Assembly: GCA_963716985.1 (NCBI GenBank)
Contig: OY970323.1
Span: forward strand, 768,001 to 832,000
Origin: an uncultured bacterium
GTDB lineage: Bacteria > Chlamydiota > Chlamydiia > Chlamydiales > SM23-39
Direction of reading: 5' to 3'
DNA: 64,000 nt
In this document: piece by piece, positions 46,443 to 64,000 of the stretch
Layout of the letters: each line of letters opens with the position of its first letter
How positions within the stretch are numbered: the first letter of the stretch is position 1
The notes under the pieces: model-generated
Database searches by the model: none
What the model was told of the DNA's origin: nothing
Seen by the model: only the letters and a program-made list of their open reading frames with translations
Made by a program: the position numbers and the translations under genes

Positions 46443-46452
46443 TATTTTGCCG

Positions 46453-47591: not shown

Positions 47592-49579
47592 TTTTTATGT
47601 AACCGAAGCTGATTTAACCGCTCTAATCTACTGATTTCGAGTTTTTTAAACCACTCGTCTTTGGAAAGGTTTTTGTACGCCGTTTCAGCAAAAAATTCCG
47701 CTTTTGTGGAGTAGATTTCGGCGAGCTCTTCACAAACCAAACCCCGCGCGGTATCGAGCACCTCTTTTGGCATGTCCAGTTCATTGCGTTTCATCATGGA
47801 GTCATATTCATTATCCAGCGCGAGTAAGATATCTAAGGCTTCGTTGCTTCGATTTAGCAAACGCAATGCTCGAGCGACCGCCCATTTTGCCACCCTTACA
47901 TTAGGAAGATATCCTTCCATTTCTCGAAACTTTTGTGCCTGCTGCAAGGTAGTTAGCGCCTTTTCGTATTGCCGGGCTTCTATGTAGGCCTGCCCCAGGT
48001 TATTATATAACGAACCTACCCAAGCTTGAGCGCGCCTGATCTTGGACTTTTCAGCCAATTCGATGGCGTGAAGATTCCATGCGATCTTTTCTTCGGGCGT
48101 AACGGCTACGATGGCGATCATATGAGCAGCATTACAGGTATGATAATCAAAATGATGCGCTGCACTGAGATCAAAAGATTGCTTAAACAAAGGAAGGGCC
48201 GCCTCATTATTTCCTGCTTGCATCCACACCCGTCCGCGCTCTAGAAGAATGCGTACCCGAGCGAGATGATCTTGAGACGTTAAAAATTTTTCGGCGGCGT
48301 TGAGAGTCTCATGCGCAGCATCAAATTTCTTTTGCATCGCTTGAGCCAATGCGATCTGCGACATGATTTGTATATAGATCGACTTATTTTCTAAGGCAAA
48401 AGCTTGAGGCAGAAGCTCTTTTAGGTTTTTTTCAATTTGAGCGGGATCGCCCACAAAAAGTTCATCGAAGTTCTCAAGTTTTGATCGATCATCAGATAGA
48501 GGGGATTTGTTCACGTCGGGTCTCTCATTTTTTACAGAATCCGATAAGCTATTTGGATTCGAGTCTGTCGTTTTATTGTTTTCAATCATTCGTTTTACAG
48601 CTTCCACAATTATTTCTGGCTGGTGCAAAGGGATCATGTGATCGCTGTTTTCTGCAATGATCAAATTCCCGTTCGAAGATCGCGTGGCCAAATCCTGTTG
48701 AAGAAGCCTCCATGCGGGTAAGAATTTTTGGAAATACTGAACCCAAGCATCAGGCATCCCATCCGTATTAGGTGCTTGGCCGGCCGCTATTACAGTCAGT
48801 GGCAAGCTTCCAAAAGATAACTGAGCTTTTTTCAATTGTTGAAGATTGTCTGGAAAATTGAAATTTTCCTGAAAGCTCGCTCTTGCCTGCTTGGTAGTAC
48901 TTTGATGCGCAAGTATCGCATTTCTCGTCGTCTCGGGAATATTGAGCGCCTGTTCGCTGCCAGAAGAATGCACCAATAAACGATAAACTCCTAATTGGCT
49001 TGCAAATATCCAAATCCGCGGAGAGCAAAGCATTTTTTCTAACCAACTTTGCTTGGGATCTGGGGGCAGCCATTCAATGCTCTTTTCGTGAGCAGAATCC
49101 ACCAATACAAGACCGAATACTTCATTGGGATATCGTTTTGCGTATAGCTGGACATTGAGGCCGCCAAACGAGTGTCCCACGAGAATAAAGGGGGGACGTA
49201 TATTCGACCGGCTCAATAAAGCATGCAGTTCCTCAACAATTTGTTCGCTTGTTCTTGGATAAGGGCTTTCTTCGCTCCATCCATAACCTGCACGATCATA
49301 ACTGCAAACTTTTGCAAATTGGGCAATTTCCGGTTGCACAAGCGCCCATTCCAAGGAATCACATCCAAGTCCTGCATCCAACACAACTGTTGGCGTGCCG
49401 TCTCCCATGCAATGGATATGAAGTTTGTATCCGTCCATGTCGACCAATTGTCCGGGAGGAGGGTATCGTTTTTCATCGAGTTTAGTGCTAATCCATTGAT
49501 ATACAGCTCCGGTCGCGCAAATAAGAGTGACCAGACCAAGAAGACCAAGCCCGATCATTTTACACCATTTCCAAAACAT
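47588..49579 (-). CDS. Alpha/beta hydrolase fused to a TPR domain
   Basis: N-terminal TM, YDRAGYGWS, GHSFGG, SDHMI; C-terminal LERGR, SLYNNLG TPR helices. Confidence 0.85.
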   Translation of the reverse strand: MFWKWCKMIGLGLLGLVTLICATGAVYQWISTKLDEKRYPPPGQLVDMDGYKLHIHCMGDGTPTVVLDAGLGCDSLEWALVQPEIAQFAKVCSYDRAGYGWSEESPYPRTSEQIVEELHALLSRSNIRPPFILVGHSFGGLNVQLYAKRYPNEVFGLVLVDSAHEKSIEWLPPDPKQSWLEKMLCSPRIWIFASQLGVYRLLVHSSGSEQALNIPETTRNAILAHQSTTKQARASFQENFNFPDNLQQLKKAQLSFGSLPLTVIAAGQAPNTDGMPDAWVQYFQKFLPAWRLLQQDLATRSSNGNLIIAENSDHMIPLHQPEIIVEAVKRMIENNKTTDSNPNSLSDSVKNERPDVNKSPLSDDRSKLENFDELFVGDPAQIEKNLKELLPQAFALENKSIYIQIMSQIALAQAMQKKFDAAHETLNAAEKFLTSQDHLARVRILLERGRVWMQAGNNEAALPLFKQSFDLSAAHHFDYHTCNAAHMIAIVAVTPEEKIAWNLHAIELAEKSKIRRAQAWVGSLYNNLGQAYIEARQYEKALTTLQQAQKFREMEGYLPNVRVAKWAVARALRLLNRSNEALDILLALDNEYDSMMKRNELDMPKEVLDTARGLVCEELAEIYSTKAEFFAETAYKNLSKDEWFKKLEISRLERLNQLRLHKN

Positions 49580-49587
49580 GCTCCTCC

Positions 49588-50094
49588 TTATAAAGGGTGC
49601 GAATCATTTTCATTTTGATCGATAACCTTGACCATATAGAGACATGGATTGTTCTCATCCCATATGGTTTTAAACTCTTCGAGAGGAAAAAAACCATTGG
49701 CCTGATAAAAACGTCTCGTTTTTGCATAATTTTCATCTTCAATAGAAGGTGAAAGGGTCTTGACGGTTAAAAACTTGAAACCTTTTTTGCGCAGGTATTC
49801 CTCGGATTTTTCGAGCAGCGCCTTTCCAATACCTTTTCTTTGATGTTCCTTCACTACCCCCATCACAGAAATTTCCGCAGCAGAGGAGGTATGTATTTTT
49901 AAAGTGAGAAATCCAACGATCTTATTATCCATCTTTGCGGCAAAAGTGGGGAGTTTTTCTGCTTGGAGCGCATAATCCTGAATGGACTTTTCTATCTGAA
50001 ACCATTCAGGGAGTGCGTGCAAAATGTTGCTGCAAACCAATCCCTTATCTTCGATTAGCTCTTCAATTTTCATACGCCCCCTTTTGAAATTCAA
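49588..50094 (-). CDS. GNAT acetyltransferase
   Basis: LPEWF, HQRKGIGKALL, TRRFYQANGF. Confidence 0.88.
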   Translation of the reverse strand: MNFKRGRMKIEELIEDKGLVCSNILHALPEWFQIEKSIQDYALQAEKLPTFAAKMDNKIVGFLTLKIHTSSAAEISVMGVVKEHQRKGIGKALLEKSEEYLRKKGFKFLTVKTLSPSIEDENYAKTRRFYQANGFFPLEEFKTIWDENNPCLYMVKVIDQNENDSHPL

Positions 50095-50503
50095 TGAGTT
50101 CGATCAGAGCGCCATCATTAACAATCATAGCCGTTCGAACACCGCTCGATGGAGCACCAGGGGGTAACAAGACCTCTTTTCCTTTCAGCGCCTCATCCAT
50201 GTCATTCACTTCAAAAGCAATATGCGGCACTTTTCGAAGAATATCCGGAACAGGACAATCTGGTTCAAATCGCATCCATTCGATTCCGTAAGGACTTGTT
50301 TCGAATCCCATCACAAACACTTTCAAATGTTTGTGATGCGTTTCTCCAGGACGAGGATCCTCATATGGAATTCCCAGGTGATGATACTTCCATCCCCATT
50401 TTGCAACTGCAACAGGAGGTTCGTGGGATAATCGTTTATTCATGGGCAAATCCTTTCGTTTATTGAACGCAATCCAGTCTCTTGGATAGGCGCCGAATCG
50501 CAT
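50063..50503 (-). CDS. VOC/glyoxalase-family protein
   Basis: YHHLGIP, PHIAFEV, GALIELIEF; true start probably at MNKRL. Confidence 0.8.
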   Translation of the reverse strand: MRFGAYPRDWIAFNKRKDLPMNKRLSHEPPVAVAKWGWKYHHLGIPYEDPRPGETHHKHLKVFVMGFETSPYGIEWMRFEPDCPVPDILRKVPHIAFEVNDMDEALKGKEVLLPPGAPSSGVRTAMIVNDGALIELIEFQKGAYEN

Positions 50504-51272
50504 CCCATCCCAAAAGCAGAGTAAATAATATTAATGCAAGAACGCTCATTCCAAAGGGAAGATAGCCGGATGGCCCAAGCATAGCGGATCGCATTCCCTC
50601 CATCACGTACATTAACGGGTTCAACAGGGTAAGGTAGCCCGCCGTATGCGACAACCCATAGACCGCGGTCCATGAGAAAAAATAGCCCCCAAACATGTAC
50701 AAGGGATTAATCACACGCACAAAGAGATGCGAGAGGCTGCTCATTTTTTTAAAAACACTCGACAGCCACAATGCAAAAAAGCCAAACATGAGATTACTTA
50801 AAACAAAAATGATGGGAATTTTCCAGAGGCTGATTTGTCCCAAATCGAATTGAGAAAACAATAGCAACTTACCCAAGGGAAATAAGGTGAGGCTAATGAT
50901 TGACGAAAGCAAGGCCCAAGAAAGCCCGTAATAAACAAAGACCAACCAGGCAGGAATCGGCAAGGACAAGATGTACAGAATCGTTCGATATTTTTCCAAA
51001 TCGACAATCATTGAACTGACCCGTCCTATGACCTCAAAAAAACCAAAGCTGGCGATTGCTCCAACGAGAATGAAGCTACCATAGTTGGACGCAAGTCCAT
51101 ATGTGGGCAGCAAACGGCCAAAGATCAGCACGGTGATGACGAGTCCAATCGCGGCATCTAGGCATTTACCCCAAAACTGTTCCTTGAATATCCGCAAATC
51201 GCGGCGAATCAATTGAACTACCGTGAAAAAATATCTCGAATATCGAGACTTTTGAATGCTATTTTTCTTCAT
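50460..51272 (-). CDS. ABC-2 transporter permease
   Basis: Six TM helices, LLNPLMYVMEGMRSA. Confidence 0.88.
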   Translation of the reverse strand: MKKNSIQKSRYSRYFFTVVQLIRRDLRIFKEQFWGKCLDAAIGLVITVLIFGRLLPTYGLASNYGSFILVGAIASFGFFEVIGRVSSMIVDLEKYRTILYILSLPIPAWLVFVYYGLSWALLSSIISLTLFPLGKLLLFSQFDLGQISLWKIPIIFVLSNLMFGFFALWLSSVFKKMSSLSHLFVRVINPLYMFGGYFFSWTAVYGLSHTAGYLTLLNPLMYVMEGMRSAMLGPSGYLPFGMSVLALILFTLLLGWDAIRRLSKRLDCVQ

Positions 51273-52023
51273 GATCGGACTCTTGGATTAATTTGATAAA
51301 TACCTCTTCCAAACGCCCTTTTTGGTGGAGTTTCATGAGGTTGCTCGGAGTATCGATCGTTTTGACGACCCCCGCATCGATGATGCACACCCGATCCGAC
51401 AGGTACTCAGCCTCGTCTAGGTAGTGTGTTGTGAGCAAAATGGACGATCCATTTCGTTTGAGCTCGACTATTTGATCCCACAATTGATGGCGAATGTGAG
51501 GATCCAAGCCTACGGTCGGCTCATCCAAAATGATCAATTGAGGTCGATGCATGAGAGTGCGGGCAATCAAAAACCGCTGCTTGTAGCCGCCCGATAGGAC
51601 GCTGGCCTTTGCATGCGCATACTCACGCAAATGGAATTGATCCATGAGTTCGTTTACACGTTCATGGATATCGCGCTCTGTCATGAGATGATACCGGCCG
51701 GCAAACATGAGGTTGTCCGCCAGCGTCAATTCCAAATCGAGGTTTAGATTTTGCGGACAAAAGCCAACGATCGTTCGATAAGAAACGATGTCTTCATAAA
51801 TCGATCGGTTTTGATATAAAACGTCCCCAGAAGTGGGCGGATGAAGTCCCGCTACAATCGTCGATAGGGTTGTTTTTCCAGCCCCATTCACGCCGAGAAG
51901 CGAAAAAATCTCCCCTTCCTGAATGTCTAAAGAAATTCCTTTCAGAGCCTCTTTGACGTAACCCTTGCTGCGAAATTGCTTATGTATGGCCCGAATTTGA
52001 ACCAATGTGTGTGTCATAAACAC
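51259..52023 (-). CDS. ABC transporter ATP-binding protein (DrrA/NodI-like)
   Basis: GVNGAGKTT, LSGGYKQR, DEPTVGLDP, TTHYLDEAE. Confidence 0.93.
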   Translation of the reverse strand: MFMTHTLVQIRAIHKQFRSKGYVKEALKGISLDIQEGEIFSLLGVNGAGKTTLSTIVAGLHPPTSGDVLYQNRSIYEDIVSYRTIVGFCPQNLNLDLELTLADNLMFAGRYHLMTERDIHERVNELMDQFHLREYAHAKASVLSGGYKQRFLIARTLMHRPQLIILDEPTVGLDPHIRHQLWDQIVELKRNGSSILLTTHYLDEAEYLSDRVCIIDAGVVKTIDTPSNLMKLHQKGRLEEVFIKLIQESDHEEK

Positions 52024-52039
52024 CTAAAACAAAAATGTA

Positions 52040-52151
52040 TAAAAAAATCGACAAGATGGTCGAAGCGTAAAAATTCTCTAGTTAGAGAATTTTATGATGC
52101 TACCCGGTCGGCCGGGTCAGCTAAAAAGAAGTGTTAACGATCTGTTCTCAT
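52040..52151 (-). promoter_or_regulatory. Putative attenuator leader: uORF MRTDR* with three hairpins
   Basis: uORF 52151-52134; hairpins at 52102-52117, 52070-52093 and 52048-52063, the last followed by U7 on the minus strand. Confidence 0.55.
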
Positions 52152-52206
52152 ATGACACACAATATGATATGGATTGTAGCCGTTTTGCCAAATAACGGTC
52201 AATCAT

Positions 52207-53790
52207 TTACAGCGAAATTTGTCTTGTCGCGATTTTTGCGATAAATGTCTCGTCGTGAGAGATAGCCAAGATGGCCCCTGAAAAATTCAGCAGGGCAGTT
52301 TCCAGGGCTTCCAGCGTCAAAAGATCCAAATGATTGGTCGGTTCATCGAGAAGAATGACATTGGGTCTAGCCAGGATCAGGGAAAGGATCATCAAGCGTT
52401 TTCTTTGACCGGCGCTCATCGACTGAAAGGGCAGGGTCAAGAGATCGGCCCCATCTAAACCAGCTTTATGCAACTCACAGCGAATCTGAGTTTCATCGAG
52501 GCCAAATCTTTGAGATAGATAGTCCAAAGGCGTTTGATCGAAAGGCAGCATTTCGCCATCTTGATCGAGATAACCAATGCGCACTGAAGGATTGATGCGA
52601 ATAGTTCCCGTGTCTGGAACCAGTTCTTTGAGGAGACATTTTAAGAGCGTCGTTTTACCAGAGCCGTTGGGCCCTGTCACAATGAGCCGTTCGTTGGCCC
52701 TCAAGGCATTTGTTTGGTCCTGGACAACGATCTTGCCATCGAAAGATTTAGATAAATGTTCCCATTCGATAGCGATCGGCGCTGAAAACGACGAATCATG
52801 AAAAACGATCCCAGTAACGGATTTAGGGCGTGGATGAACAAGAGGATCTGCATCAATCTTCTCCAGACGGTCTTTCATCTGGTCAAGCCGATGTTTCACC
52901 GAGCGCTGGTGTGATTCGCCCCATTGGTCATATGCCATAATATTGCGGTCCTTGGGAGGAGGCGGTTTCCCCTTGGAAAATGTCGTTGCTCGAATTTGTT
53001 GAACGAGATGGGAACGCTCTTCTTGCTGCTCTTCAAACGCTCGAATTTGCTGTTCAATCAATCGATTGCGCTCTGTCACATAAAAATCATAATTGCCGCC
53101 AAACCGCGTCAATCGTTGATTTTTCAATTCGATCAATCGATTGCAGGTATCATTGATAAAACGGCGATCATGCGAAACGATAATTGTAGCGCCCTTGCGC
53201 TGCTTCAAGTGGCCTTTCAGCCAGTCAATGCTATGATGGTCGAGATGATTGGTTGGCTCGTCGAGCAGCAACAGATCTGGATTGTCTAAAAGCACTTTGG
53301 CCAGATCAACACGACGCCGTTCGCCACAGCTTAACGTGTTCAGGAAACGATCCAGGTCAATTTGTAATGATAATCCATGAACCATTTCATCGAGCGTGGA
53401 CGAATAGCCGCCTTTTCGTTCGAATTCTTCATGAAGAGCCGCCCATTGCTCCAAGATTACCGGGTCGTCCAAACCATCCTGCAGTGATTCCATCGTTTGT
53501 TCGATCTGATGCAGTGAGCTGAAAAGATATTCCCGTACCGTTTGCGTTAAAGAATCGGGAGGTTCTTGGGAAAGATATCCAATTGAAAGCTCTTTGGAAC
53601 GTTCTACCGTTCCCTCATCAGGAACATCAATCGATGCTAAAAGACGCAAAAGGGTTGTTTTTCCCGATCCATTTTCGCCGACTAAAGCAAAGCATTCGCC
53701 GCGACTGATGGACAAAGAGATACCATCGAAGATTTTCTTCGGGCCAAAAGACTTGAAAATATTACGTAAATGAATAAGAAGCTGAGACAT
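52207..53790 (-). CDS. ABC-F ribosome-associated ATPase (antibiotic-resistance ABC-F-like)
   Basis: Two ABC domains (GENGSGKTT, GPNGSGKTT), DEPTNHLD twice, FGGNYDFY, long interdomain linker, no TM. Confidence 0.9.
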   Translation of the reverse strand: MSQLLIHLRNIFKSFGPKKIFDGISLSISRGECFALVGENGSGKTTLLRLLASIDVPDEGTVERSKELSIGYLSQEPPDSLTQTVREYLFSSLHQIEQTMESLQDGLDDPVILEQWAALHEEFERKGGYSSTLDEMVHGLSLQIDLDRFLNTLSCGERRRVDLAKVLLDNPDLLLLDEPTNHLDHHSIDWLKGHLKQRKGATIIVSHDRRFINDTCNRLIELKNQRLTRFGGNYDFYVTERNRLIEQQIRAFEEQQEERSHLVQQIRATTFSKGKPPPPKDRNIMAYDQWGESHQRSVKHRLDQMKDRLEKIDADPLVHPRPKSVTGIVFHDSSFSAPIAIEWEHLSKSFDGKIVVQDQTNALRANERLIVTGPNGSGKTTLLKCLLKELVPDTGTIRINPSVRIGYLDQDGEMLPFDQTPLDYLSQRFGLDETQIRCELHKAGLDGADLLTLPFQSMSAGQRKRLMILSLILARPNVILLDEPTNHLDLLTLEALETALLNFSGAILAISHDETFIAKIATRQISL

Positions 53791-53900
53791 AAGTTTGTTC
53801 CGTAGTTAAGGTTAATGATGGAATCAAACTTATTTGCGCATGGGTGCACAGTCTCCGTAAATATATTCTTAATTATAGCATACAACGCAGTTTCACGCAA
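53789..53900 (-). promoter_or_regulatory. Promoter, uORF MRK* and start-sequestering hairpin upstream of ABC-F
   Basis: TTGCGT-17bp-TATAAT; uORF 53841-53830; 53820-53833 pairs with 53789-53801 (one bulge), covering the initiation region. Confidence 0.7.
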
Positions 53901-54065
53901 CAGCGACCGATTTTATCCATGTTTTCAATAAAATTTTTATTAACACACTCAAAGACTTGTTAAAAACATCACGCCCGACCAAACGAACCGAGTTTATTAA
54001 AATCTGCTGTTTTTAATAAAGAATGTTAAAACCGACTTCTGTATAATTACTAACAAACAACAACT

Positions 54066-55151
54066 TTGTATAAAAAATTTATGGGAACGATGCATCGCTG
54101 GCTGATATCGGTTTGCAGCATATTCTGCTGTTTTGTAAGCTGCACATCCGATCATGCGCCTCAAACGATCAATCGCAAAGATGCTGCTAATGTCGTACAA
54201 AATGCCCTTAAAATTGACGAGCCAATCATTACCGATGAAATTCTCAGTGGACATTCGGGAAATCAACTCTTTTTAGCCACTGCCGGAAACAATAAATATG
54301 TCATACGTTTTTTTAAATATCCCTCACGAGCTGGTCAAGAAATTGATTGTCAACGCATTGCTTCTGAGTTTGGGTATGGCCCTCATGTTTTTGCTGCAGA
54401 TCCCGATCAAAGTTATATTGTGATGGAATACTTACCCCAATATGCGGTAGATCAAAATCAGTTTTCATCGAGCCAGCGTTATCAAGCATTAGGGGAAGCT
54501 TTATTCAAAATGCACCACGGACCCAAATTCCCCGAAAAAGGGGACTCTATCTTTGAAGATATTCATTCACGGATTCGAAAATTGAAAAAACGAACATCTT
54601 TTGAACTGATTGCAACACGCTTAGAAGAGATGATTTTCGATATTCAGAAAAACCTTTCTTTTTTTCCGAACAACAAAGCTTCGTGTCACAATGACCTTCA
54701 TCCCGGGAACCTGATTTTTTCAGGCTCATCATTCAAAATCATTGATTTTGGAGACGCGACTCAAGACGATCCCTATTTTGATCTTGCAACGGTGATTGTG
54801 TTCAATTGTTTTCAGCCAGAGCAAGAAGAGGCAGTATTAATGTCTTATTTCAAACGTCCGATCAAGCCGGAAGAAAAAGCAAAACTGGAGTTGATGAAAC
54901 AAGCGGTTTTTATTTGTTGGGCTACTCGAGGTTTTTTAGAAAATGGCCAAGCCTATGATGAAAGAATTGAATCTAAAATTGCGTCTGAAAATTTTCAGAG
55001 TTTATTGAAAAAATCCCAGATTGGAGACGATCTTGCTAAACAAGAGGTAAAATCTCTAGCTCCCTACATTTTTTTAAGAGAAGCTGACAATCGCTTTCAA
55101 TCTCAGCACACCTATGTGAGTGAGCTATCGAATGCGCCTATCCATCATTAG
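54066..55151 (+). CDS. APH/choline-kinase-family phosphotransferase, possible lipoprotein
   Basis: HNDLHPGN, IIDFGD, DPYFDLA; N-terminal FVSC. Confidence 0.85.
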   Translation: MYKKFMGTMHRWLISVCSIFCCFVSCTSDHAPQTINRKDAANVVQNALKIDEPIITDEILSGHSGNQLFLATAGNNKYVIRFFKYPSRAGQEIDCQRIASEFGYGPHVFAADPDQSYIVMEYLPQYAVDQNQFSSSQRYQALGEALFKMHHGPKFPEKGDSIFEDIHSRIRKLKKRTSFELIATRLEEMIFDIQKNLSFFPNNKASCHNDLHPGNLIFSGSSFKIIDFGDATQDDPYFDLATVIVFNCFQPEQEEAVLMSYFKRPIKPEEKAKLELMKQAVFICWATRGFLENGQAYDERIESKIASENFQSLLKKSQIGDDLAKQEVKSLAPYIFLREADNRFQSQHTYVSELSNAPIHH

Positions 55152-55213
55152 CGAAAAATGTTAAGATTCAAAGCACAAACTAAAAAAACGATCGACGAAA
55201 AACTTTTTGAAAA

Positions 55214-56260
55214 GTGGAAGAAACGGTGAAAAAAATTTTAGAGAAAAGCAAAATTCCAGGAGTTAGCTACATCTTCAACAAGCAGGGTATCGAGCTGCCA
55301 ATTATCGATATCACGCACCCTGCTTTTGCTATAAAAATGAATGCAGAACAACTGAAGGCCGTTGTCGATAAATTCACTGTTGAGTCGAATAAATTAGAAA
55401 AAACACCTAAGTTTCTCCAGCGACTCCTTTTCTTTTTTTTCCTTCGACGCTCGATTTTGGGTCGAGGATTATTGGCTGCGGAAAAAGGCTTTTTAAGTGC
55501 CATGAACACTTATTTAATGAAAATTGGAGCGGACAATTTGGGCGCAAGCTATGCGGGAGTACTGGATCGCAAAAGAGCTCAATCCTTACCAGCTTTATCC
55601 GTCCGTCTGCGCCTTGAAGATATCGTTCATCTCTTGGTAGAGGGAACACTGCCCCTTCTGAAAGCAAAACCAAACATCCCATTGCATTTCATCAATATCG
55701 CAGGAGGTCCCGCAATTGATAGTCTCAATGCCTTGATCTTGATTCAGAAAGAAAACCCTCACCTGCTGCGCTCTCGCAGAATTGAGATGCATATCCTGGA
55801 TTTAGAAGAAGAAGGGCCTCAGTTTGGCGAACAAGCTGTCGCTGCCTTACAAATGGAAAAAAGACCCCTCGCAGGACTTGATCTTCATTTCCACTATCTA
55901 AAATATGATTGGTCCAACACAACCATGTTAACGAATTTTATAAATACCCTGTCCAACGAGCCTAAAATTGTAGTTGCTTCGTCAGAAGGCGGCCTTTTTG
56001 AGTACGGCTCAGATGAATCCATCATCGCTAATCTCAAAGCTTTGAACCATAGCGCCTCTCTCTTTGTCGGTTCCGTCGTTCGCGCTGACGGACCAACTGG
56101 TCTTTCACACGCCAAGGGGCAGAATGTTTTACAACTGTTAATTCGACTAAAGACACTTGAATCTTTCCGCACATTGGTTGAACAAGCAGGCTGGAAGATC
56201 GCACGAGTGCTCGAACAGCCCATGCATTACAACGTGACTTTGATCTCACGCAATCTTTAG
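55214..56260 (+). CDS. Hypothetical protein, possible class I SAM-dependent methyltransferase fold
   Basis: FINIAGGPA, HILDLE, SSEGGLFEY. Confidence 0.6.
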   Translation: MEETVKKILEKSKIPGVSYIFNKQGIELPIIDITHPAFAIKMNAEQLKAVVDKFTVESNKLEKTPKFLQRLLFFFFLRRSILGRGLLAAEKGFLSAMNTYLMKIGADNLGASYAGVLDRKRAQSLPALSVRLRLEDIVHLLVEGTLPLLKAKPNIPLHFINIAGGPAIDSLNALILIQKENPHLLRSRRIEMHILDLEEEGPQFGEQAVAALQMEKRPLAGLDLHFHYLKYDWSNTTMLTNFINTLSNEPKIVVASSEGGLFEYGSDESIIANLKALNHSASLFVGSVVRADGPTGLSHAKGQNVLQLLIRLKTLESFRTLVEQAGWKIARVLEQPMHYNVTLISRNL

Positions 56261-57234
56261 TTCTGAAGAGATCTCAAGAATTTTAATATTTCACGAGAGG
56301 CAATCGTGTGCACTCTCATTGCATCGGATAGAGATTTTTCCCCCACAAGGTAATCGCGGAATGGTTGATCTGTGAAGTCCATATGGACAGCACCCTGGAT
56401 GACTTGTTTATCAGAATGCGGAGAGTTGCGATGAAGCGTTTCATATTCTTCCTGCCATTGTCTCTCGAATTTTGCAAATCGTCTCATTTCAGCATCAGGA
56501 TGTTGTTCATCCTCACCGATTTTTTTTTGATAGTCGCCAATGAGCATCAGAAGAGGTTGCGGCAAAGCATCTGTTTTTTCTGCACCGCCTTTTAAAGAAC
56601 CATCCAAATTCACACATCCTAAAATCGCTGGGTCGCTTCTAGAGACCATAATCGAAGCTGCCCCTCCCAAAGAATGACCCATTAATATGATTCTGTTCGG
56701 ATCGCCAGTAATCTTTAATGCTCCATTTCGGACCCTGTTAAGCACATATTGGATATTCTTCACCATCACAGCGGCAAGCTCGTCTGTTCGTGCTTCTGCT
56801 TGCTCTAGGGAGGCCCATTCTTCATCTTCAGCACTCGATGGATGAGTTAAGCTTAAAACTGTATACCCGTGACTGGCCAACTCTCCCAAAAAAGGTCTGT
56901 ATTTACCGGGCTGTCCAAATCCGTGAGAAAAAATCAGTATTGGGGGGTTCTCATCGTCAGTGGCTGCAGCAAAAATTTCGATGTCGATACATGGGTCCGT
57001 TTTAAGACTTTTCGGCGGGTTTAGAGATGCGCTGGTAATGCATACAATATTCCGTCCTGTGAAATTGGTTGCTATCTGAGAGAAGTGCTTAGCTGCATAT
57101 TTAGCTCGTTCTAGCGACCGCCTCGCTACTTCGTTGCAAACTGATTCCAAATGAGCCTTCATCGAAATGTGCGGCAATGTTGGATCATATAGAACAACAG
57201 CTGTCTCTGTAACGGGACTTAAAAATGACGTCAT
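56257..57234 (-). CDS. Alpha/beta hydrolase (PAF-acetylhydrolase-like) with novel N-terminal leader
   Basis: IFSHGFG, LASHGY, GHSLGG, NLDGS, HMDFTD; start refined to ATG 57234. Confidence 0.85.
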   Translation of the reverse strand: MTSFLSPVTETAVVLYDPTLPHISMKAHLESVCNEVARRSLERAKYAAKHFSQIATNFTGRNIVCITSASLNPPKSLKTDPCIDIEIFAAATDDENPPILIFSHGFGQPGKYRPFLGELASHGYTVLSLTHPSSAEDEEWASLEQAEARTDELAAVMVKNIQYVLNRVRNGALKITGDPNRIILMGHSLGGAASIMVSRSDPAILGCVNLDGSLKGGAEKTDALPQPLLMLIGDYQKKIGEDEQHPDAEMRRFAKFERQWQEEYETLHRNSPHSDKQVIQGAVHMDFTDQPFRDYLVGEKSLSDAMRVHTIASREILKFLRSLQN

Positions 57235-57406
57235 AATTATTTCAGTATGAGCAATATTCAACTATTTTCTATTATTATTTTACCATTTTTAAATTAACAT
57301 TTCAACCCACAATGCCACTATTGTGCGCCTAATTGCTTAATAATTTGACAATTAAGGCGTTATATTGTAAAATTATAATTAATAGACATAATAATTTGGA
57401 GTTAAA

Positions 57407-58300
57407 ATGACTTCTAAAGCCGTAACCCCATGTCAAGAATTGGTTGTTTACCAACCGCGTCCAACAATTCAGTCTTTGTTGGAAAAAGCTGTCGATGAGA
57501 CTTATAGACGCTCTTTAGAAGCACAAAGAGCTGATTACGGACATTTCCACCGCTGGGGAAGAGGTGATGTGATTGTTCTTGCAGGCACATCTACGGCTGG
57601 CAAATCTTCCATCGTCGAATCGTTAAAACGGCTCGAGCCGGAGCGCATTGAAGAAGACCTGGATTTACGGCGTGACCCGCGAATTATGACTCGCCCAGGA
57701 GATCAACAGCAAATGATCGACGATGTGATTGATCATTCCCTGCAGGGCAGAAATGTGGTAGTCCATGTTGACCAAGGGTACAAAGTAATCCAGCGCTTAT
57801 TTGAAAGAAATGTATCCGTTCCGCTGAGAGTTGTTTTAGCATTTTGCCCTTTTCATGAACTGTCAAAACGTTTGATCGAACGTAATGCAAAAGCTAGACT
57901 GCCAGGCGGAGACATCAAAAATATTCGCGATCCTTTGATGCCGATTGCCAATTTTGCCGAACTTTACACCCAAAAACAGGGTGCCGAACCAGGCTTGGAA
58001 AGGATCACAAAACTGCAAGCCACAATAGCATTTAATACTCACTTTGATGAAATGATCAAATTCGCCAGAGAACAGGGCCATCCTTTGCCGTCAGATGAAC
58101 AAATCGCAATTGATAAGACTGCTTCTCTTCAAGAATTCTTAGTGAATTTGGGATTTAAAGGCGATGTGGATACAGTCGAAATCGATCCCAGAAATAAAGC
58201 TGACTATCATTTCATTTTCAACACTTACGAGCATAGAGACCAGGCAGGTCTTGATGAAATTGCAAGAATTCTTCACACAGGAACTTATAAACGAATATGA
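57407..58300 (+). CDS. P-loop kinase-like protein with novel N-terminal leader
   Basis: VIVLAGTSTAGKSS Walker A, FCPFHELSKRLIERN lid; GGAG RBS. Confidence 0.75.
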   Translation: MTSKAVTPCQELVVYQPRPTIQSLLEKAVDETYRRSLEAQRADYGHFHRWGRGDVIVLAGTSTAGKSSIVESLKRLEPERIEEDLDLRRDPRIMTRPGDQQQMIDDVIDHSLQGRNVVVHVDQGYKVIQRLFERNVSVPLRVVLAFCPFHELSKRLIERNAKARLPGGDIKNIRDPLMPIANFAELYTQKQGAEPGLERITKLQATIAFNTHFDEMIKFAREQGHPLPSDEQIAIDKTASLQEFLVNLGFKGDVDTVEIDPRNKADYHFIFNTYEHRDQAGLDEIARILHTGTYKRI

Positions 58301-58322
58301 TACGCAAATCGCGGATACGCTT

Positions 58323-59363
58323 TTATTCGTGAACAGTTTCTTTTAACTGCTCTTGTAGAAAAGATCGAATATCGCTTCTCACTTGATCAAAGAGCTTGAT
58401 CCTTTCATCAGTGTCGCCATAAAACCAGCCCATTTGAGGGGATAGGGGGCATTCGATATTGAAATAGGCGGCATCGACAAAGCTTCCATGATGGGTCTGT
58501 TTGTAATAAACAAACTTGTGGCCCAAACGTTTCATAAAATCCAATTCGCCGGAATTTTTTTGCTCTAACTCCCGTTTTTCTGAAAAAAGCATGAATGCAG
58601 GATAGCGATTGCTCAAAGGAAAGGGGAAAAGCTGTGGATCGATCGCCACAATGCATTCCTTGGCGTCCGTTGATTCATGGGGAAATAGGGTAGCAGAGGG
58701 ATTCCCATAGCCATTCGATGCAAAAAGCACGATGGAATTGGCTCCCATGGAATAGCCAATGCATCCTACGCGCTGCAAATTCAGAGAATCATAAAATTCA
58801 TTTTCATTGTTCTTTTTGAGCCAATCAAAAACAAAACGCATATTATTGATAACGCGGGCATATTTTATCAGATTTGTTTCTTTGTCATTTTTTAACTGAT
58901 GCTGAATCGCAATCACAACATAGCCATGGCTCGCCAAATCCTCAGCAATATAGGCCAGATCGGATAATAGACATCCATTCCCATGATTGAGAAAAATGAT
59001 CGGGTGTTTCCTCGTGTTTTTTAAAAAGCTGAGATCAGCTTCTCTTTTGCCAAATACGCTGTCATTTAATTGTTTCCATGTGGTGAGGAAATCGAAAATA
59101 TCCAATGCCCTCTCTTCTAAAAATTTTGGACAGGGGATTTGCGGTCCCTCTTGCTTGGGGAAATAGACCCAAATAGGCACCAGCCTGCCATTCGGATATT
59201 CCGGCTCTGTACGCCCCTGGTCGATCAAATCGAACGGTTTGATTCCTACTTGATAAGCTCCTGTAGGCACAGGCAGTTGATGCAGCTCGCTTTTGATTTC
59301 CGCAGAAAATCCCACAATGGAAATGATTGTGAAAATTAACAGGAAAAAACGATTTGTTTTCAT
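58323..59363 (-). CDS. Secreted PAF-acetylhydrolase-like alpha/beta hydrolase
   Basis: Signal peptide, LPVPTGAYQVG, LASHGYVV, GYSMGA, HGSFVD. Confidence 0.85.
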   Translation of the reverse strand: MKTNRFFLLIFTIISIVGFSAEIKSELHQLPVPTGAYQVGIKPFDLIDQGRTEPEYPNGRLVPIWVYFPKQEGPQIPCPKFLEERALDIFDFLTTWKQLNDSVFGKREADLSFLKNTRKHPIIFLNHGNGCLLSDLAYIAEDLASHGYVVIAIQHQLKNDKETNLIKYARVINNMRFVFDWLKKNNENEFYDSLNLQRVGCIGYSMGANSIVLFASNGYGNPSATLFPHESTDAKECIVAIDPQLFPFPLSNRYPAFMLFSEKRELEQKNSGELDFMKRLGHKFVYYKQTHHGSFVDAAYFNIECPLSPQMGWFYGDTDERIKLFDQVRSDIRSFLQEQLKETVHE

Positions 59364-59369
59364 ACTTAC

Positions 59370-60206
59370 CTAACATCGGCTAAGAGGGGAAATCATAAAT
59401 GGCTGATCGCAAGGAAACGCTCCATGAACCATGAGATAGCCATCATCGTACTTAAATGGCTCAGGCATCGCATCCCCACTCAAACGATCCGGAGAAAAAT
59501 AAAAATAAATGTCGTCAATAGGCTCGGAAAAATGATCAAGGATCGACTCAAGGGCAGGCAGCTTGCAGGCAACGACATCGAATAAATGCAGCGTTCGATT
59601 TTCCAATTGAAAAGAGATAAATCCATCCATCTGTTGGCTGTAATGCAAAGACCAATAGGCGGGATAGGAGGCAGCATACAGCATATTGAATAAAGCAATG
59701 CGTCCATCATCTTCGATCCATACGCGATGCGACAAAGGCTCTCTTTCACGAAAACATCGTAAAAAAAGAGAATCATCGGCGGGAGAAACCACCGGTCTTA
59801 AGGCTTGGCGTCCTTTTGTGTGCCGGCAGGGCAAATGGAATCGATGTTCTGGAACATTGCGAAATGACAGTTTCTGATAAAAATCCGAAAGATCGGTGAA
59901 TAGAATCGTAAAATCGCAGTGTTTTTCAGACCATTGCATTGCTTCGCGTATCAACTCAGAAGCATAACCCCGGCCGCGATGAGTCGTTTTCGTGCAAATA
60001 GCATGCAAAGCGCCTGCTTTTTGTCTTTTGCCGTTGATAAGTATGGAGCATTCGAAAAAACCCACGTAGGAAAGGACAGCGTCATTTTCTTCTTTAGTAA
60101 AGATTCGTCCCGATCCCCATGAAAATCCAAGATTTTCGTATCGGACAATACGGGTTTTAATCCCAGGAAACGCTTCTTCCAGTAAATTTAGATAAGGTTT
60201 GTCCAT
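59370..60206 (-). CDS. GNAT acetyltransferase
   Basis: ICTKTTHRGRGYASELI, FYQKLSF. Confidence 0.85.
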   Translation of the reverse strand: MDKPYLNLLEEAFPGIKTRIVRYENLGFSWGSGRIFTKEENDAVLSYVGFFECSILINGKRQKAGALHAICTKTTHRGRGYASELIREAMQWSEKHCDFTILFTDLSDFYQKLSFRNVPEHRFHLPCRHTKGRQALRPVVSPADDSLFLRCFREREPLSHRVWIEDDGRIALFNMLYAASYPAYWSLHYSQQMDGFISFQLENRTLHLFDVVACKLPALESILDHFSEPIDDIYFYFSPDRLSGDAMPEPFKYDDGYLMVHGAFPCDQPFMISPLSRC

Positions 60207-60402
60207 TCTTGGCGCCTAAAAACTGCGGCCATTTTACCATGAGCGGCATTCTTATGGAAAGGGGCTAATAATTTTTAAAATTTCTAATTGATATGATTTT
60301 GATCTGCAAATATGTATTAATAAAGTTTTTATATTACTACCGCTATTATTACCCTTATATTGATTCCTCTTTCGCAGTGTTTTTCAAATGGATTCGTTCA
60401 GC

Positions 60403-61635
60403 TCATGAAAAAGGCACGATTTGCTGGCAGTTTTTGCAGATCTTATCGATGGTTTGAGCAAATCTCTGTTTTTCGTCGTCCGGAATATTGTGAAACACAA
60501 TTTGCTCGGCCAGTTCGTGAATGAACCAGATTTTTGCAATCGCTTCCCTGCCTTTCTCTGAAAGGGACAGCTGCTTGCCGTTTTGCAACACAAAGCCATG
60601 CTCAATCAACGGCTTAAGTTCAGATTGCACATTGATCAAAGGGGAAAGGCCGGCATCATGAGAGAGCTTTTCAGCATTCGAGATCTCATCGCATTGCAAA
60701 ATCATCATCATGATCGCTTGGTCGGCGTTAAACGGCGTGGTTTCTTTCAGCTTGGCGTCGAAGACCAATCGCCCCCATCTGGAAGCGCAATACAGATGGT
60801 TTCCTAACGATTCTTGAATTTTTTTGGTAAGCATGGCCAAGGTCCATTTGATTTTCATTTCATAGATGCTAATTCCAGCCGCGACCCCAACGTTCAATGA
60901 TTCGATCGCTTTGCTCATCGGAATTTGAATTTTGATATCCGCAAGATCGGCTACTTCTGCGCTCACGCCATTTGTTTCATTGCCAAATACAATGGCGAGG
61001 GGTTTGGGCTGAACGTTTGCAAATGATTGCATTGTGCTGCCTTGCAGGGTGGTAACTGCGATTTGATAGCCTTGTTTTTTTAAATGCTGAATAGCTTCAA
61101 TCCCCGTTAGAAAGCGCTGCAGATGAGCGTGGAAAACAGTTCCTCTGGAAGCATCTATCGTCTTTTTGTAGAAAAAATCTTGGGTTTCTTTTGTCGAAAC
61201 AAACTCCTGAATATCAAAAGCTGCTGCCGTACGAATAATCGTCCCAACGTTGCCAAAATCATTCACTTCATCCAAAACGATGACGCAGTCGCTTTTATGC
61301 ACATCAATCGAAGGAAAGCGCGCAACTCCGACAATAGGAATTAGATAGGATGTATCGGTAATCTTTTTGAGAATGCCATCCGTCATAAAAAAGAGGGGGA
61401 TGTTTTTCGTTTTCAATGTGGCAAGAACCGGCGCATTGGACTGCTGATCGTGAACAAATACATGCTCGATCTTGCATGGGCTCTCGAGGGCCCACAATAT
61501 TTGTTCTTCTCCCTCTAGAAGAAATTTCTGAGCGGCCAACCGTCCTGCGGCAGAATGAAGAGATCGAGCCTCGACAATTCGATCATCTTTGATGGAGGTG
61601 ATTTTCGAGTCCATAATCCATCCGCCTAAGTACAA
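60403..61635 (-). CDS. TrmH/SpoU RNA methyltransferase fused to a C-terminal MarR-like winged helix
   Basis: DFGNVGTIIRTA, VFGNETNGVS, IPM...ESLNVGVAAGI; C-terminal LIEHGFV...LSLSEKG. Confidence 0.85.
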   Translation of the reverse strand: MYLGGWIMDSKITSIKDDRIVEARSLHSAAGRLAAQKFLLEGEEQILWALESPCKIEHVFVHDQQSNAPVLATLKTKNIPLFFMTDGILKKITDTSYLIPIVGVARFPSIDVHKSDCVIVLDEVNDFGNVGTIIRTAAAFDIQEFVSTKETQDFFYKKTIDASRGTVFHAHLQRFLTGIEAIQHLKKQGYQIAVTTLQGSTMQSFANVQPKPLAIVFGNETNGVSAEVADLADIKIQIPMSKAIESLNVGVAAGISIYEMKIKWTLAMLTKKIQESLGNHLYCASRWGRLVFDAKLKETTPFNADQAIMMMILQCDEISNAEKLSHDAGLSPLINVQSELKPLIEHGFVLQNGKQLSLSEKGREAIAKIWFIHELAEQIVFHNIPDDEKQRFAQTIDKICKNCQQIVPFS

Positions 61636-62600
61636 ACCAGCAATCGCTCGGACCCTAAGCCGCTAATCAAAAAGCGCTCTTTTTGATTGCTGAGCAGCTG
61701 TCTAGTCCAATTTGTAAACCCACCATCCACGAGCAGTAAATCATTGCCAGCAGCATCTTTAGCAAAAATATGATAACAAGCGTCGGAGTAATACCCGCGC
61801 CCCGTTTCACGTTTTTGATCAAATTCTATTCTCACATGGCTATGTTCTGCAGCCAAACGATTCAATACCTTTTGCTGCAGCATATCTATGCGGCTTTCAT
61901 CTAACGCTGTCACATGCACCGACAAATCCCGCACTTTGATGCCCAGCTCATGAGATTTGAGTAATAACTGAATGAAAAAAGAGATGTGCTCAAACAGAGC
62001 CTCAGTTTCAAAGATGAATGAACCCTCGTCTAAACCTGCAGTCGTTAAAGCCAGCAATCGAAAATGAGAAAAAAAAGCAGCCCCCTCAAATTTTTGGCAC
62101 CGCACCACCCTTTGACTAGCGCATAGCTTGATTTTGGAGGGATCGCCCCCTTCTTTTTTGAGCCGCTGTTTTCTGGCAGCCGACTCCAAAGCCAAAACGT
62201 TGGTGGGATCCGAGCAAACCTCGACATTCCGGATCGTTGATAAGGCGTTATTTTGATCGACAGCTGCGATTACGGAGTTGGCTCCCAGCGGCGCTAAGGG
62301 CGAAAGCTCGATCATTTCAAAATCTTTGGGAAGAAGCGTTGCAGCGAACAAATCAAACTTCATCGCCTCGCAAACATTGGCTTTGGCAGGTTGGACAAAA
62401 CGGTTATTCGTGTATTGCTGCAATAAGAGTTTAGGAGTGACCTTTTTGGTTTTTTCGCGATAGACCTCTAACAAGAGAGAAGTCAAATCAGGAAATGAAC
62501 ATTTTTCGACCAAATTTTCGAATAAATGAGGGCTTTGCAATTCGGTTTCAATTCTTTGAACGATTTTTTTCTGCATGTTTCTCCTATTGAACCGGCTCAA
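61626..62600 (-). CDS. Hypothetical protein with class II aminoacyl-tRNA-synthetase-like core
   Basis: SDPTNVLAL, QRVVR.Q.F...HF (motif-2-like), DGGF, ISGLGSERL (motif-3-like). Confidence 0.6.
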   Translation of the reverse strand: MSRFNRRNMQKKIVQRIETELQSPHLFENLVEKCSFPDLTSLLLEVYREKTKKVTPKLLLQQYTNNRFVQPAKANVCEAMKFDLFAATLLPKDFEMIELSPLAPLGANSVIAAVDQNNALSTIRNVEVCSDPTNVLALESAARKQRLKKEGGDPSKIKLCASQRVVRCQKFEGAAFFSHFRLLALTTAGLDEGSFIFETEALFEHISFFIQLLLKSHELGIKVRDLSVHVTALDESRIDMLQQKVLNRLAAEHSHVRIEFDQKRETGRGYYSDACYHIFAKDAAGNDLLLVDGGFTNWTRQLLSNQKERFLISGLGSERLLVCT

Positions 62601-63411
62601 ACAGGCCCACGTAATAGCCGTCAGTCATTTCAAAACCTAAATCCAGATAGCATTTTCGGGCTGCAATATTTTCTCTACCGGTGAAAATCACTACTTTCTG
62701 AGCCCCTTTTTTCTGCATAAACTGGATGAGATGCGAGCACAGCGCCTTGGCATATCCTCTTCGTTGGTAAACAGGATCTGTGGCTACGCCTAAAAATTGA
62801 AACGCATGAATGGCGAGGCCGTTGCTCGTCGCCACCGCCACAATTTTTCCGTCTACTTCCAAACAAAACGATGCATCACAGGCGCGCACTTTTATTCGCT
62901 CTTCTTCAGTAATCGGAGCATCCATGGTGACATGATGGATTAAACGCTGCAATCGAGCGACTGTATCGACATCCTTATCTGCTACTGGACGAATAGATAC
63001 CTTCGGCAAAGAAAATGGCTTAAAATGCTCCATCACCAGTTCGAAAAAATCCATTTCAGGGGGATTAATTGGCTTGCGTCCCGATGCTACAAACTCAGCA
63101 TATGCTGGCTCAATCATCTTGGACATTCCAAGCAATGCATTCACCGAAGAATGCTCTTTCAATACGATTCGAGCGAATGCCCTTGATGCCTCGGAGCTCT
63201 CAGAAAAAATCGTGCAGGATTGAAAGGTGGGGTAGTACCCACATACACCAACGATCCGGTTATTTTCTTTGGCGATATAAATAAAAGCCGGCTGGAAATG
63301 GCTTTGCAAATTGCCCAAAAGAAACAGCGCCTGTGCTTCATGAGGCGCAAGATAGGCGATGAGTTCTTTTCGCGCTGATTCTTGATTGCCATCGAATTGA
63401 GTAATTTTCAT
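62584..63411 (-). CDS. GNAT acetyltransferase (tandem-domain type)
   Basis: GVATDPVYQRRGYA, NIAARKCYLDLGF. Confidence 0.85.
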   Translation of the reverse strand: MKITQFDGNQESARKELIAYLAPHEAQALFLLGNLQSHFQPAFIYIAKENNRIVGVCGYYPTFQSCTIFSESSEASRAFARIVLKEHSSVNALLGMSKMIEPAYAEFVASGRKPINPPEMDFFELVMEHFKPFSLPKVSIRPVADKDVDTVARLQRLIHHVTMDAPITEEERIKVRACDASFCLEVDGKIVAVATSNGLAIHAFQFLGVATDPVYQRRGYAKALCSHLIQFMQKKGAQKVVIFTGRENIAARKCYLDLGFEMTDGYYVGLFEPVQ

Positions 63412-63418
63412 ATTAGTT

Positions 63419-64000
63419 TTACCGCATCCATTTCCAAATTTTTTGCCTCAAAGAAAAATGAGGATACCATGCGAAAAAAACAAATGCCGATATGAGCATA
63501 ATCAATCCGCCGCCCCATATAGGCAAGGTGGGATGAGCGCCCACAAGCGATCCGGAAAATAAAGAGCTCACAATGGCAGATAGTCCCCAAATCGATCCCA
63601 AAATTCCTAGAGCTTCCCCTTGAATTTGCGGCGATGCTTGGTTGGATATTAATGTGCTAAATGACGGTAAAACATAAGCTAAAAATGAGAACTTCAAAAT
63701 GATCATTACCCACATCCATAAAAGAGAAGCATTTAACAATATGGCTAAAATGGAAATCCCGCCAAAAAACAATCCGCCGAACACCAATGTTTCTACTTTC
63801 AGCCATTTAGATATAGGACGGATGAGAATGCCGCTATTGAAGGCATAAACGCCGCTGGCAATGCCAAAGAAAACACCCAAATCCTTGGATGAAAAGTGGT
63901 ATTGATCGATCAAATATACGGGAATGAATTCAACAAATAAGGTCCAGGCAAAATTGGCAAGAAAACACGCTAGAAAAACGATTTGCAACCCTTCTAGATG
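63419..64000 (-). CDS. MFS transporter (TetA/DHA1-like), 5' part outside the window
   Basis: Multiple TM helices, LISNQASPQIQGEALG; frame is open to the window edge. Confidence 0.85.
   Translation of the reverse strand, partial: HLEGLQIVFLACFLANFAWTLFVEFIPVYLIDQYHFSSKDLGVFFGIASGVYAFNSGILIRPISKWLKVETLVFGGLFFGGISILAILLNASLLWMWVMIILKFSFLAYVLPSFSTLISNQASPQIQGEALGILGSIWGLSAIVSSLFSGSLVGAHPTLPIWGGGLIMLISAFVFFAWYPHFSLRQKIWKWMR

Follow-up and report, generated by a model that had tools for sequence, protein, structure and literature searches.

How type III secretion systems pick their substrates is still an open question. The N-terminal signals share a composition, reported as rich in Ser, Thr and Pro and poor in Leu and charge, but not a sequence (PMC2669295), and no motif is described among the clients of the chaperone Slc1 (PMC3576375). 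Terminal reassortment, in which a 5' unit is joined to unrelated genes, has been described for type III effectors (Stavrinides, Ma and Guttman 2006, as cited in PMC2669295 and PMC6460904). Here we analyse a 64,000-nucleotide stretch (the window; positions 768,001 to 832,000 of contig OY970323.1) from an uncultured member of the Chlamydiota, in which two divergent genes, for an alpha/beta hydrolase and a P-loop kinase, start with the same leader of about 50 residues. Judged from the sequences, this leader is a real and apparently undescribed protein module of Chlamydiota. A literature search that included the spelled-out motif found no description of it, supplements and most subscription papers lying outside the search so that a mention is possible, and no such module is described in the available text of PMC13466201, PMC3482391 and PMC6925127.

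A common leader on two divergent genes

The first-pass annotation, made from the letters alone, had proposed that two unrelated, divergent enzymes have a common N-terminal leader of about 50 residues. Both open reading frames (ORFs) were found as described: the hydrolase of 325 amino acids at 56257..57234 on the minus strand (ATG at 57234, stop at 56257) and the kinase of 297 amino acids at 57407..58300 on the plus strand, with leaders at 57082..57234 (minus; residues 1-51) and 57407..57547 (plus; residues 1-47), respectively. The pattern LE-x4-E-x2-RRSLE-x7-HF fits both leaders and occurs in exactly these two among the 13,189 six-frame ORFs of the genome, and the local alignment score of 48 was reached by none of 20,000 shuffles (maximum, 46).

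Because the pair had been picked after looking, two independent tests were added. A hidden Markov model (HMM) made from 27 hydrolase leaders of other sources, with no kinases and with the window hydrolase excluded, detects the kinase leader at E 2e-6, rank 2 of 13,189 ORFs, the next hit being at E 0.09. An 11-column position-specific scoring matrix (PSSM) of the leader core, built without the window proteins, ranks both leaders first and second when some 606,000 positions of 1,775 ORFs are scored. In the hydrolase leader the core motif (residues 10-18; 57181..57207, minus strand) has the top score in the genome, 23.0, and the kinase leader, with a degenerate core at 57431-57457, scores 12.8. 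The hydrolase leader matches the independent HMM at E 2.4e-25, as rank 1, and profile A3 (see below) at E 8.6e-18, the latter value not being independent since A3 includes this leader.

Many carriers had been expected in this proteome; HMM and PSSM found only these two, and no third carrier at the sensitivities used. A contig of sequencing run X2, possibly the source sample, bridges both leaders with zero differences, and in run X4, which belongs to a different study, contigs of a diverged strain are arranged alike. Recent local duplication of the window leaders was rejected, for they are 38% identical, each is nearer to leaders elsewhere and no blastn self-match was detected; by sequence they appear to be two family members in one accessory islet.

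Distribution and cargo of the leader

Profile A3, of 28 leader rows, matches 33 of 400 phylum genomes (about 8%; one further genome was unscored), a count that is not independent as about 25 of the 33 supplied A3 rows. The earlier profile A2, of four rows, had hit 28 of the 400 genomes at E 0.01, including chance matches. Within the window genome's own family A3 matches 12 of 103 genomes, and none of 29 in another family (f20). Carrier genomes hold one to four leader copies each, and at least nine chlamydial families include carriers. When 1.84 billion cluster representatives were searched, A3 gave 78 matches, 77 with an N-terminal copy and one, the ankyrin-repeat protein P0115, false. A single-leader scan of 185,579 species genomes gave seven matches: five are real, titled Rhabdochlamydiaceae, Chlamydiae (two), Chlamydia and Verrucomicrobiae (one), and two, both non-chlamydial (L118, L119), arose by chance, lying either in no long ORF or within a large protein. 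A plasmid collection searched with two leader subtypes gave no match. Carriers with names are chlamydial (homologues titled Rhabdochlamydiaceae, Parachlamydiales or Chlamydiae), and restriction of the leader to Chlamydiota is likely, though most matches carry no taxon.

The first-pass annotation had also named matches on diverse C-terminal domains, here or in other Chlamydiota, as support for its view, and the profile searches gave such matches, with the leader N-terminal on about ten cargo families. Pooling, with at least 18 bits required, gave 141 non-redundant carriers, a set in which a few genes appear twice under different starts, and in which short singletons could be fragments; the leader starts within 15 residues of the N-terminus in 137. 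The 105 carriers with at least 100 residues of cargo form 21 BLAST clusters: platelet-activating factor acetylhydrolase (PAF-AH)-type hydrolases (35), NTAN1/CheD-like amidohydrolases (19; Atlas structure TM 0.54 and 0.43/0.59), beta-lactamase-like hydrolases (9+3), P-loop kinases (8), a Cys/His/Asp family (8), S41 proteases (3), weakly matching methyltransferases with ankyrins (3), APH-like proteins (2) and protein-kinase-like proteins (2), the remaining clusters being unnamed. The beta-lactamase-like hydrolases had come up as the third cargo in homologue searches, matched via the leader alone. By these assignments the leader heads about ten named or unnamed enzyme families.

Some of these families deserve separate mention. 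In alignment A7 (P0140, P0110 and 17 others) a compact NTAN1/CheD-like domain with conserved Cys and His stands behind the leader, after a variable low-complexity linker of up to about 150 residues; this undescribed chlamydial family is a candidate for deamidase effectors. The family of about 380 amino acids in alignment A8 (L012:1501-2637) has invariant Cys146, His181 and Asp196 and no Pfam or PDB match; a papain/transglutaminase-like enzyme is our guess. Leader-bearing P0113 (L028:460-1578) has no Pfam or NCBIfam match, and a stretch containing H-G presumably recalls ADP-ribosyltransferases. Four short carriers (P0088, P0089, P0121 and L030) look frameshifted or partial, with an intact leader.

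Anatomy and predicted structure of the leader

The leader unit, about 45-50 residues long, consists of 7-10 variable Ser/Thr/Pro-rich residues, a core S-T-A-L/I-V/I-P-Y-x-P and an amphipathic helix. In correction of the earlier emphasis on RRSLE...HF, the best-conserved part is this upstream S-T-A-[LIV]-[VI]-P-Y-x-P core, with column frequencies of 84% (S), 67% (T), 91% (A), 98% (L/I/V), 96% (V/I), 62% (P), 91% (Y) and 72% (final P). The motif Tyr has a median position of 16, and the helix downstream holds a conserved Glu (75%). By eye, three leader subtypes differ in the helix, and RRSLE...HF marks one of them. The helix has a hydrophobic moment of 0.51-0.56; the net charges of the window leaders are +3 and -1, without lipidation site or basic patch. 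Two leader copies are present in five carriers (P0084, P0085, P0086, P0103, P0112), and in four carriers the leader lies 21-47 residues in from the N-terminus. Such duplicate and internal copies point to a binding module tolerant of position, with which a chaperone site and a host-side site agree equally.

Searches of Pfam, NCBIfam and PHROGs with the 28 leaders of A3 gave no family matched by more than one member; Rad54_N (E 0.0016, below the cut-off, 1 of 28 leaders) was rejected. The PDB sequence search with the leader profile gave nothing under E 1, and the ESM Atlas no usable match to the leader. A likeness of the kinase leader helix (57467-57544) to the FAF1 coiled-coil helix was also rejected, the profile E of 3.3 being at chance level, and a pattern like the ubiquitin-interacting motif was found in 1 of 141 carriers.

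In the AlphaFold2 (AF2) models of both proteins the first 20 or so residues are without secondary structure, the helices have confidence (pLDDT) values of 58-76, and the cores are mostly above 85. For the hydrolase, residues 1-60 have pLDDT 37-76, with a helix at 25-55 and the first core strand at 64; for the kinase, residues 1-19 are below 50 and the helix spans 21-46. Both catalytic folds are thus predicted to begin after the leader. That the leaders are instead parts of each catalytic fold, or resemble each other by chance, is hardly credible. The medium confidence of the helix, and the survival of its second half in relatives that lost the core, would agree with a part of the fold. However, the same leader stands on about ten unrelated folds, solved kinases align to the window kinase from model residue 48 or so, including residue 1 of chloramphenicol phosphotransferase, and profiles made independently find both genes. 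Three ways in which the proposed module could fail had been named at the outset; instead, the alignment is significant, other carriers exist and the catalytic folds are complete without the leader.

Exchange of the leader between genes

Leaders on unrelated cargo are up to 79% identical, and in 35 of 105 carriers the closest leader belongs to a different cargo; overall, same-cargo leader pairs are closer (median 0.38 vs 0.26 cross-cargo), and the leader tree, with 48 columns, is mostly unresolved. One kinase (P0004) has a domain 72% identical to that of the window kinase and a leader resembling that of a hydrolase (P0027). DNA homology ends at +107 to +159, near the leader end, in seven of eight cross-cargo pairs aligned. 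For the closest cross-family leader pair the proportion of synonymous differences (pS) is 0.35 over 39 codons, compared with a minimum of 0.74 for the Slc1-like gene (55 cross-family pairs), which argues for recent exchange. These alignments show the pattern of terminal reassortment, that is, the same N-terminus, unrelated C-termini and homology stopping at the leader end, and indicate that the leader has been fused to unrelated complete enzyme domains and exchanged by recombination of the 5' end of the gene.

Nonsynonymous differences (pN) are below pS in all 39 cross-cargo pairs (0.24 vs 0.56), which were chosen for at least 50% identity and at least 30 codons and include some duplicates. 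The leader is thus under purifying selection as a protein. This bears on another explanation, in which the travelling unit is a strong cassette of promoter, ribosome-binding site and start, or a DNA or RNA element, whose effect is to activate acquired genes while the peptide is a passenger. An element, TATAATTAA, is enriched upstream of leader genes (10 of 36, with a shuffle mean of 0.6 and 6 of 245 AT-rich control starts; in another comparison, 5 of 17 vs 3 of 40 AT-matched neighbours), and DNA alignments of some cross-cargo pairs reach 20-115 bases upstream, as such a cassette would predict. TATAATTAA was, however, chosen after looking and lies at a varying distance of 5-67 bases from the start, the upstream alignments are AT-rich and weak, and 14-15-mers common to upstream regions are at chance level. 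The leader is also kept on internal, translationally coupled operon genes without a promoter, and selection at the codon level largely refutes the cassette as sole explanation, leaving it very improbable. That promoters often travel along with the leader may be taken as a post-hoc hint.

Two kinases titled Candidatus Trichorickettsia mobilis (P0010, P0011) fall inside the leader-bearing kinase clade (the starred 14-row branch), at a place where long branches meet, and they keep the helix tail with the core lost. Transfer between endosymbiont lineages is the likely explanation from this tree. To our knowledge, Rickettsiales lack type III secretion.

Leader genes in operons and islets

Tandem leader pairs were detected in the genomes G022, G157, G164 and G279, and also in G438. 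In G436 an operon (L143:2077-6852, contig C92) consists of four leader-bearing genes, for a kinase, a Cys/His/Asp family member, a hydrolase and a protein-kinase-like protein; stop and start codons overlap at two junctions, and two GNAT-type genes flank the operon. Other carriers stand alone between core genes. Beside the carriers, all-against-all BLAST of 16 regions, in which the neighbours were not family-annotated, found no secretion, chaperone or mobile-element gene in common. Near two leader-bearing hydrolases of G438 there is a run of about a dozen same-strand genes (L144:664-9048, contig C20), many with Ser-rich starts; three paralogues in it start with a stretch faintly recalling the core motif.

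The four-gene operon and the first four of the tandem pairs would also suit a role inside the bacterium, without export, in which the leader tags enzymes of accessory islets for oligomerisation, co-assembly, tethering to a membrane or degradation. The islets lie among GNATs, transporters and phosphotransferases resembling detoxification genes, and the kinase, which is like chloramphenicol phosphotransferase, and the beta-lactamase-like hydrolases could act on cytoplasmic small molecules. This role is nevertheless improbable: many carriers stand alone between core genes, the set of cargoes varies from islet to islet, and it would explain neither a composition like that of type III signals nor the exchange with Sec signals (see below). 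Shell (PF00936), encapsulin (PF04454) and contractile-sheath (PF04984) genes were not found in any of five carrier genomes searched, four of them at least 95% complete, with the same profiles positive in 2-3 of 14 controls; for this reason the reading as a loading peptide for a microcompartment, encapsulin or contractile injection system was removed.

A candidate module for type III export

We favour the view that the leader is a portable type III export and chaperone-binding module spread by terminal reassortment, and place its probability at about 50%. The unstructured first residues would serve as the signal for type III secretion; the conserved core would pair as a beta-strand, and the helix wrap, on a component conserved in chlamydiae. 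The most plausible candidate for it is a class I chaperone that serves several cargoes, for example Slc1, from which the enzyme would pass to the injectisome. The cargo, such as a phospholipase/esterase-like hydrolase or a small-molecule kinase, would then act in the host cell, probably a protist, and a single recombination event could turn an acquired enzyme into an effector. A type III/chaperone-binding or host-localisation function is the most likely one on the basis of position, composition, replacement of Sec signals and presence of a type III system.

In residues 2-15 of 135 carriers, compared with 1,186 genome ORFs, S+T+P make up 45% vs 18%, K/R 4% vs 15%, D/E 3% vs 8% and L 7% vs 12%, in agreement with what PMC2669295 reports on the composition of such signals. 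Taken alone, the residues ahead of the motif are 29% S, 11% T and 10% P. For S+T+P the window hydrolase is at the 94th percentile of its genome and the kinase at the 76th, which alone is unremarkable.

A hydrophobic start resembling a signal peptide was detected, by a crude hydrophobicity rule, in none of eight leader-bearing S41 proteins vs 83 of 112 other S41 top homologues, and in 1 of 49 near hydrolase homologues compared with 10 of 14 distant ones. In longer hydrolases the opening LPxxTG...VG motif comes after the leader as it does after the signal peptide elsewhere. By this test the leader appears to stand where relatives have a signal peptide, in two families that are normally Sec-exported.

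Chlamydiae have type III secretion as a core system (PMC8242063). Non-flagellar SctV (TIGR01399) is over the cut-off in all five carriers tested, the window genome included, which also holds three CesT-family chaperones (Slc1-, Scc1- and Scc4-like). An Slc1-like chaperone is present in 40 of 40 phylum genomes, 56-84% identical. Predicted complexes of the Slc1-like dimer with the leader scored 0.01, 0.66 and 0.69 in different runs, and one unrelated control 0.50. Also counted in favour of export are the N-terminal position in 137 of 141 carriers, pN below pS in the cross-cargo pairs, the chlamydial names of the carriers, the loss of the core in the Trichorickettsia kinases, and cargo that includes kinase-like, ankyrin, NTAN1/CheD-like and Lp-PLA2-like domains.

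Several observations weigh against the export module. The composition test is partly circular, as the motif contains S and T, and the carriers are related; co-occurrence with type III secretion cannot discriminate, because every chlamydia has that system. There are only 1-4 carriers per genome in about 8% of genomes, compared with an estimate of about 100 type III substrates for C. trachomatis (PMC3576375), and the core is absent from every other protein of the window genome. Sequence conservation is unusual in type III signals (PMC2669295), and known Slc1 clients have no common sequence motif (PMC3576375). The conserved chaperone-binding domain (CCBD) pattern (LMIF)xxx(IV)xx(IV)xN, a proteobacterial one taken from PMC3576375, was found within the first 70 residues in 1 of 141 carriers, and the class II chaperone anchor P/VxLxxP (from PMC13466201) in 10 of 141, too few to assign it. 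Double and internal copies fit a binding module and not a pure terminal signal, and among S41 and kinase relatives there are some that have lost the core and still persist.

In an alternative reading, only the first 10 or so variable residues would export a type III effector, with core and helix forming a host-side module for localisation or adaptor binding. Fixed Ala and Tyr (91% each) suggest a defined pocket, and the tandem copies in five carriers, the amphipathic helix (moment 0.51-0.56) and the patchy, low-copy presence, fitting one optional host target, are in agreement with it. Common N-terminal targeting motifs have precedents (PMC3896991, PMC3417404), and in CT694 the chaperone-binding and membrane-localisation regions overlap (PMC3576375). 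We consider it unlikely, yet well worth weighing, since the likely substrates of the cargoes are very different (lipid, small molecule, protein), the carriers belong to nine or more families, whose hosts probably differ, the window leaders have neither lipidation site nor basic patch (net charge +3 and -1) and no significant PDB match was obtained.

Counting the export module and the host-side module together, it is quite probable that the leader is an effector leader. More tentatively, with chances somewhat below even, the leader may dock on a single conserved partner and have been recombined onto acquired enzymes in place of Sec signals, with islets of effectors traded across chlamydial families.

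The two enzymes and their surroundings

The genome that holds both leaders is one contig of 2.07 Mb with 44% GC. For the hydrolase a TTG start upstream at 57261 is also listed; the ATG at 57234 agrees with homologues. The protein matches PF03403 over the cut-off (E 8.8e-13), its top Foldseek matches are a ferulic acid esterase and human Lp-PLA2 (E about 1e-14), and it has a GxSxG nucleophile elbow and a Ser188-Asp211-His284 triad, in which S188 and D211 are invariant and H284 nearly invariant among 42 homologues. Family, elbow and triad all agree with the PAF-acetylhydrolase-like assignment, and the enzyme is predicted to be Lp-PLA2/esterase-like with an intact triad.

The kinase has the nucleoside monophosphate (NMP) kinase fold with Walker A at residues 60-68. 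Structure alignment (VIA-align) gave adenosine phosphosulfate (APS) kinase (Z 13.8, rmsd 2.6, 127 residues aligned) and chloramphenicol phosphotransferase (CPT; Z 12.3, rmsd 2.5, 150 aligned, model 47-295 on chain 1-178); solved NMP-type kinases align to model residues 48-297 with 10-19% identity. PF07931 (CPT) matches at E 2.3e-4, with 21.4 bits vs a cut-off of 22, over profile positions 1-26 only. Assignment as chloramphenicol phosphotransferase was rejected, as this match is below cut-off and partial and the fold is common to many NMP-type kinases; the model predicts an enzyme working like a small-molecule kinase.

Sites like sigma-70/66-type promoters stand before both genes, TTGAAA-17-TAAAAT for the hydrolase (57277..57305, minus strand; 10 of 12 consensus matches) and TTGACA-17-TAAAAT followed by TATAATTAA for the kinase (57345..57382, plus strand; 11 of 12). 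They are consensus matches only, 8 such sites being found vs 5.4 expected in shuffles.

The neighbouring gene at 58323..59363 (minus strand) codes for another PAF-AH-type hydrolase (PF03403, E 1.7e-8), 23% identical to the leader-bearing one over 105 amino acids. It had been described as carrying a Sec-type start instead of the leader, and a hydrophobic start is seen; neither the leader HMM nor the core PSSM matches it. The GNAT acetyltransferase that follows (59370..60206, minus strand) is 58% identical over 278 amino acids to the one at L143:1184-2047, on a flank of the four-gene leader operon of G436. The region from 46000 to 64000 of the window looks accessory, with GNATs, ABC genes, hydrolases and an APH/choline-kinase-like gene (54066-55151), and its DNA has no match in the same-genus genome G001. 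Elsewhere in this genome (G000:C1, at 881314, 932162 and 1679959) there are three identical six-frame ORFs of 583 amino acids, probably a repeated mobile element.

Implications and comparison with known systems

A conserved 48-residue leader on unrelated enzymes provides a defined sequence to mutate and a bait for its partner. The leader profile flags more than 100 'hypothetical' proteins of uncultured chlamydiae as candidate effectors, among them undescribed families such as the NTAN1/CheD-like amidohydrolases and the Cys/His/Asp family. The leader would show effector evolution by 5'-end fusion at work, of which an earlier survey saw no regular sign (PMC2669295). If the leader does dock on one conserved partner and has been recombined onto acquired enzymes in this way, this would give chlamydial type III secretion, or an export route still to be described, its first sequence motif for recognising substrates, and the birth of effectors through fusion would be seen directly at phylum scale, with islets of up to four enzymes per operon. 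The idea is testable, because one carrier (P0110) comes from a named species, Candidatus Rubidus massiliensis. This species has been cultured in amoebae.

Terminal reassortment likewise joins a 5' unit with an N-terminal secretion region to unrelated ORFs and leaves short N-terminal homology, but it was described in Proteobacteria and, according to PMC2669295, as singular events. In contrast, the chlamydial leader is one family with three subtypes, on about ten cargo families and in at least nine chlamydial families, for which secretion is predicted. Certain Salmonella effectors also share an N-terminal region, which we take to be longer, at about 140 residues. That region, with the motif WEK(I/M)xxFF (SopD2, SifA, SseJ and SspH2; PMC3896991), resembles the leader in being one lineage-restricted N-terminal motif on unrelated effector activities, tied there to translocation and localisation; the motif itself is different and has no sequence similarity to the leader.

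Class I chaperone-binding domains of the beta-motif and CCBD kinds, including those of Slc1 clients (PMC13466201, PMC3576375), also follow 20-25 unstructured residues, and the next region of the leader could likewise add a beta-strand and a helix to the chaperone dimer. The leader core lies at about residues 8-18, in contrast to mapped domains at 17-85 and 35-139, and the CCBD pattern is present in 1 of 141 carriers. The TrM motif of Xanthomonas (chaperone HpaB; PMC6638074) is a short N-terminal motif of several effectors that governs export and chaperone dependence; it is proline/arginine-rich and binds cardiolipin, whereas the leader core is hydrophobic with a fixed tyrosine. Shared membrane-localisation domains (PMC3417404) work in a similar manner, the sequence not being shared. 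Nearest in lineage are the NEX/PEX families of Parachlamydiaceae (PMC4209131), environmental chlamydial proteins with modular N-termini, of which tested members had working type III signals. Their N-termini are F-box, BTB or RING domains, with large paralogue expansions and repeat C-termini; the leader described here, by contrast, is without a Pfam match, is present in low copy and heads enzymes.

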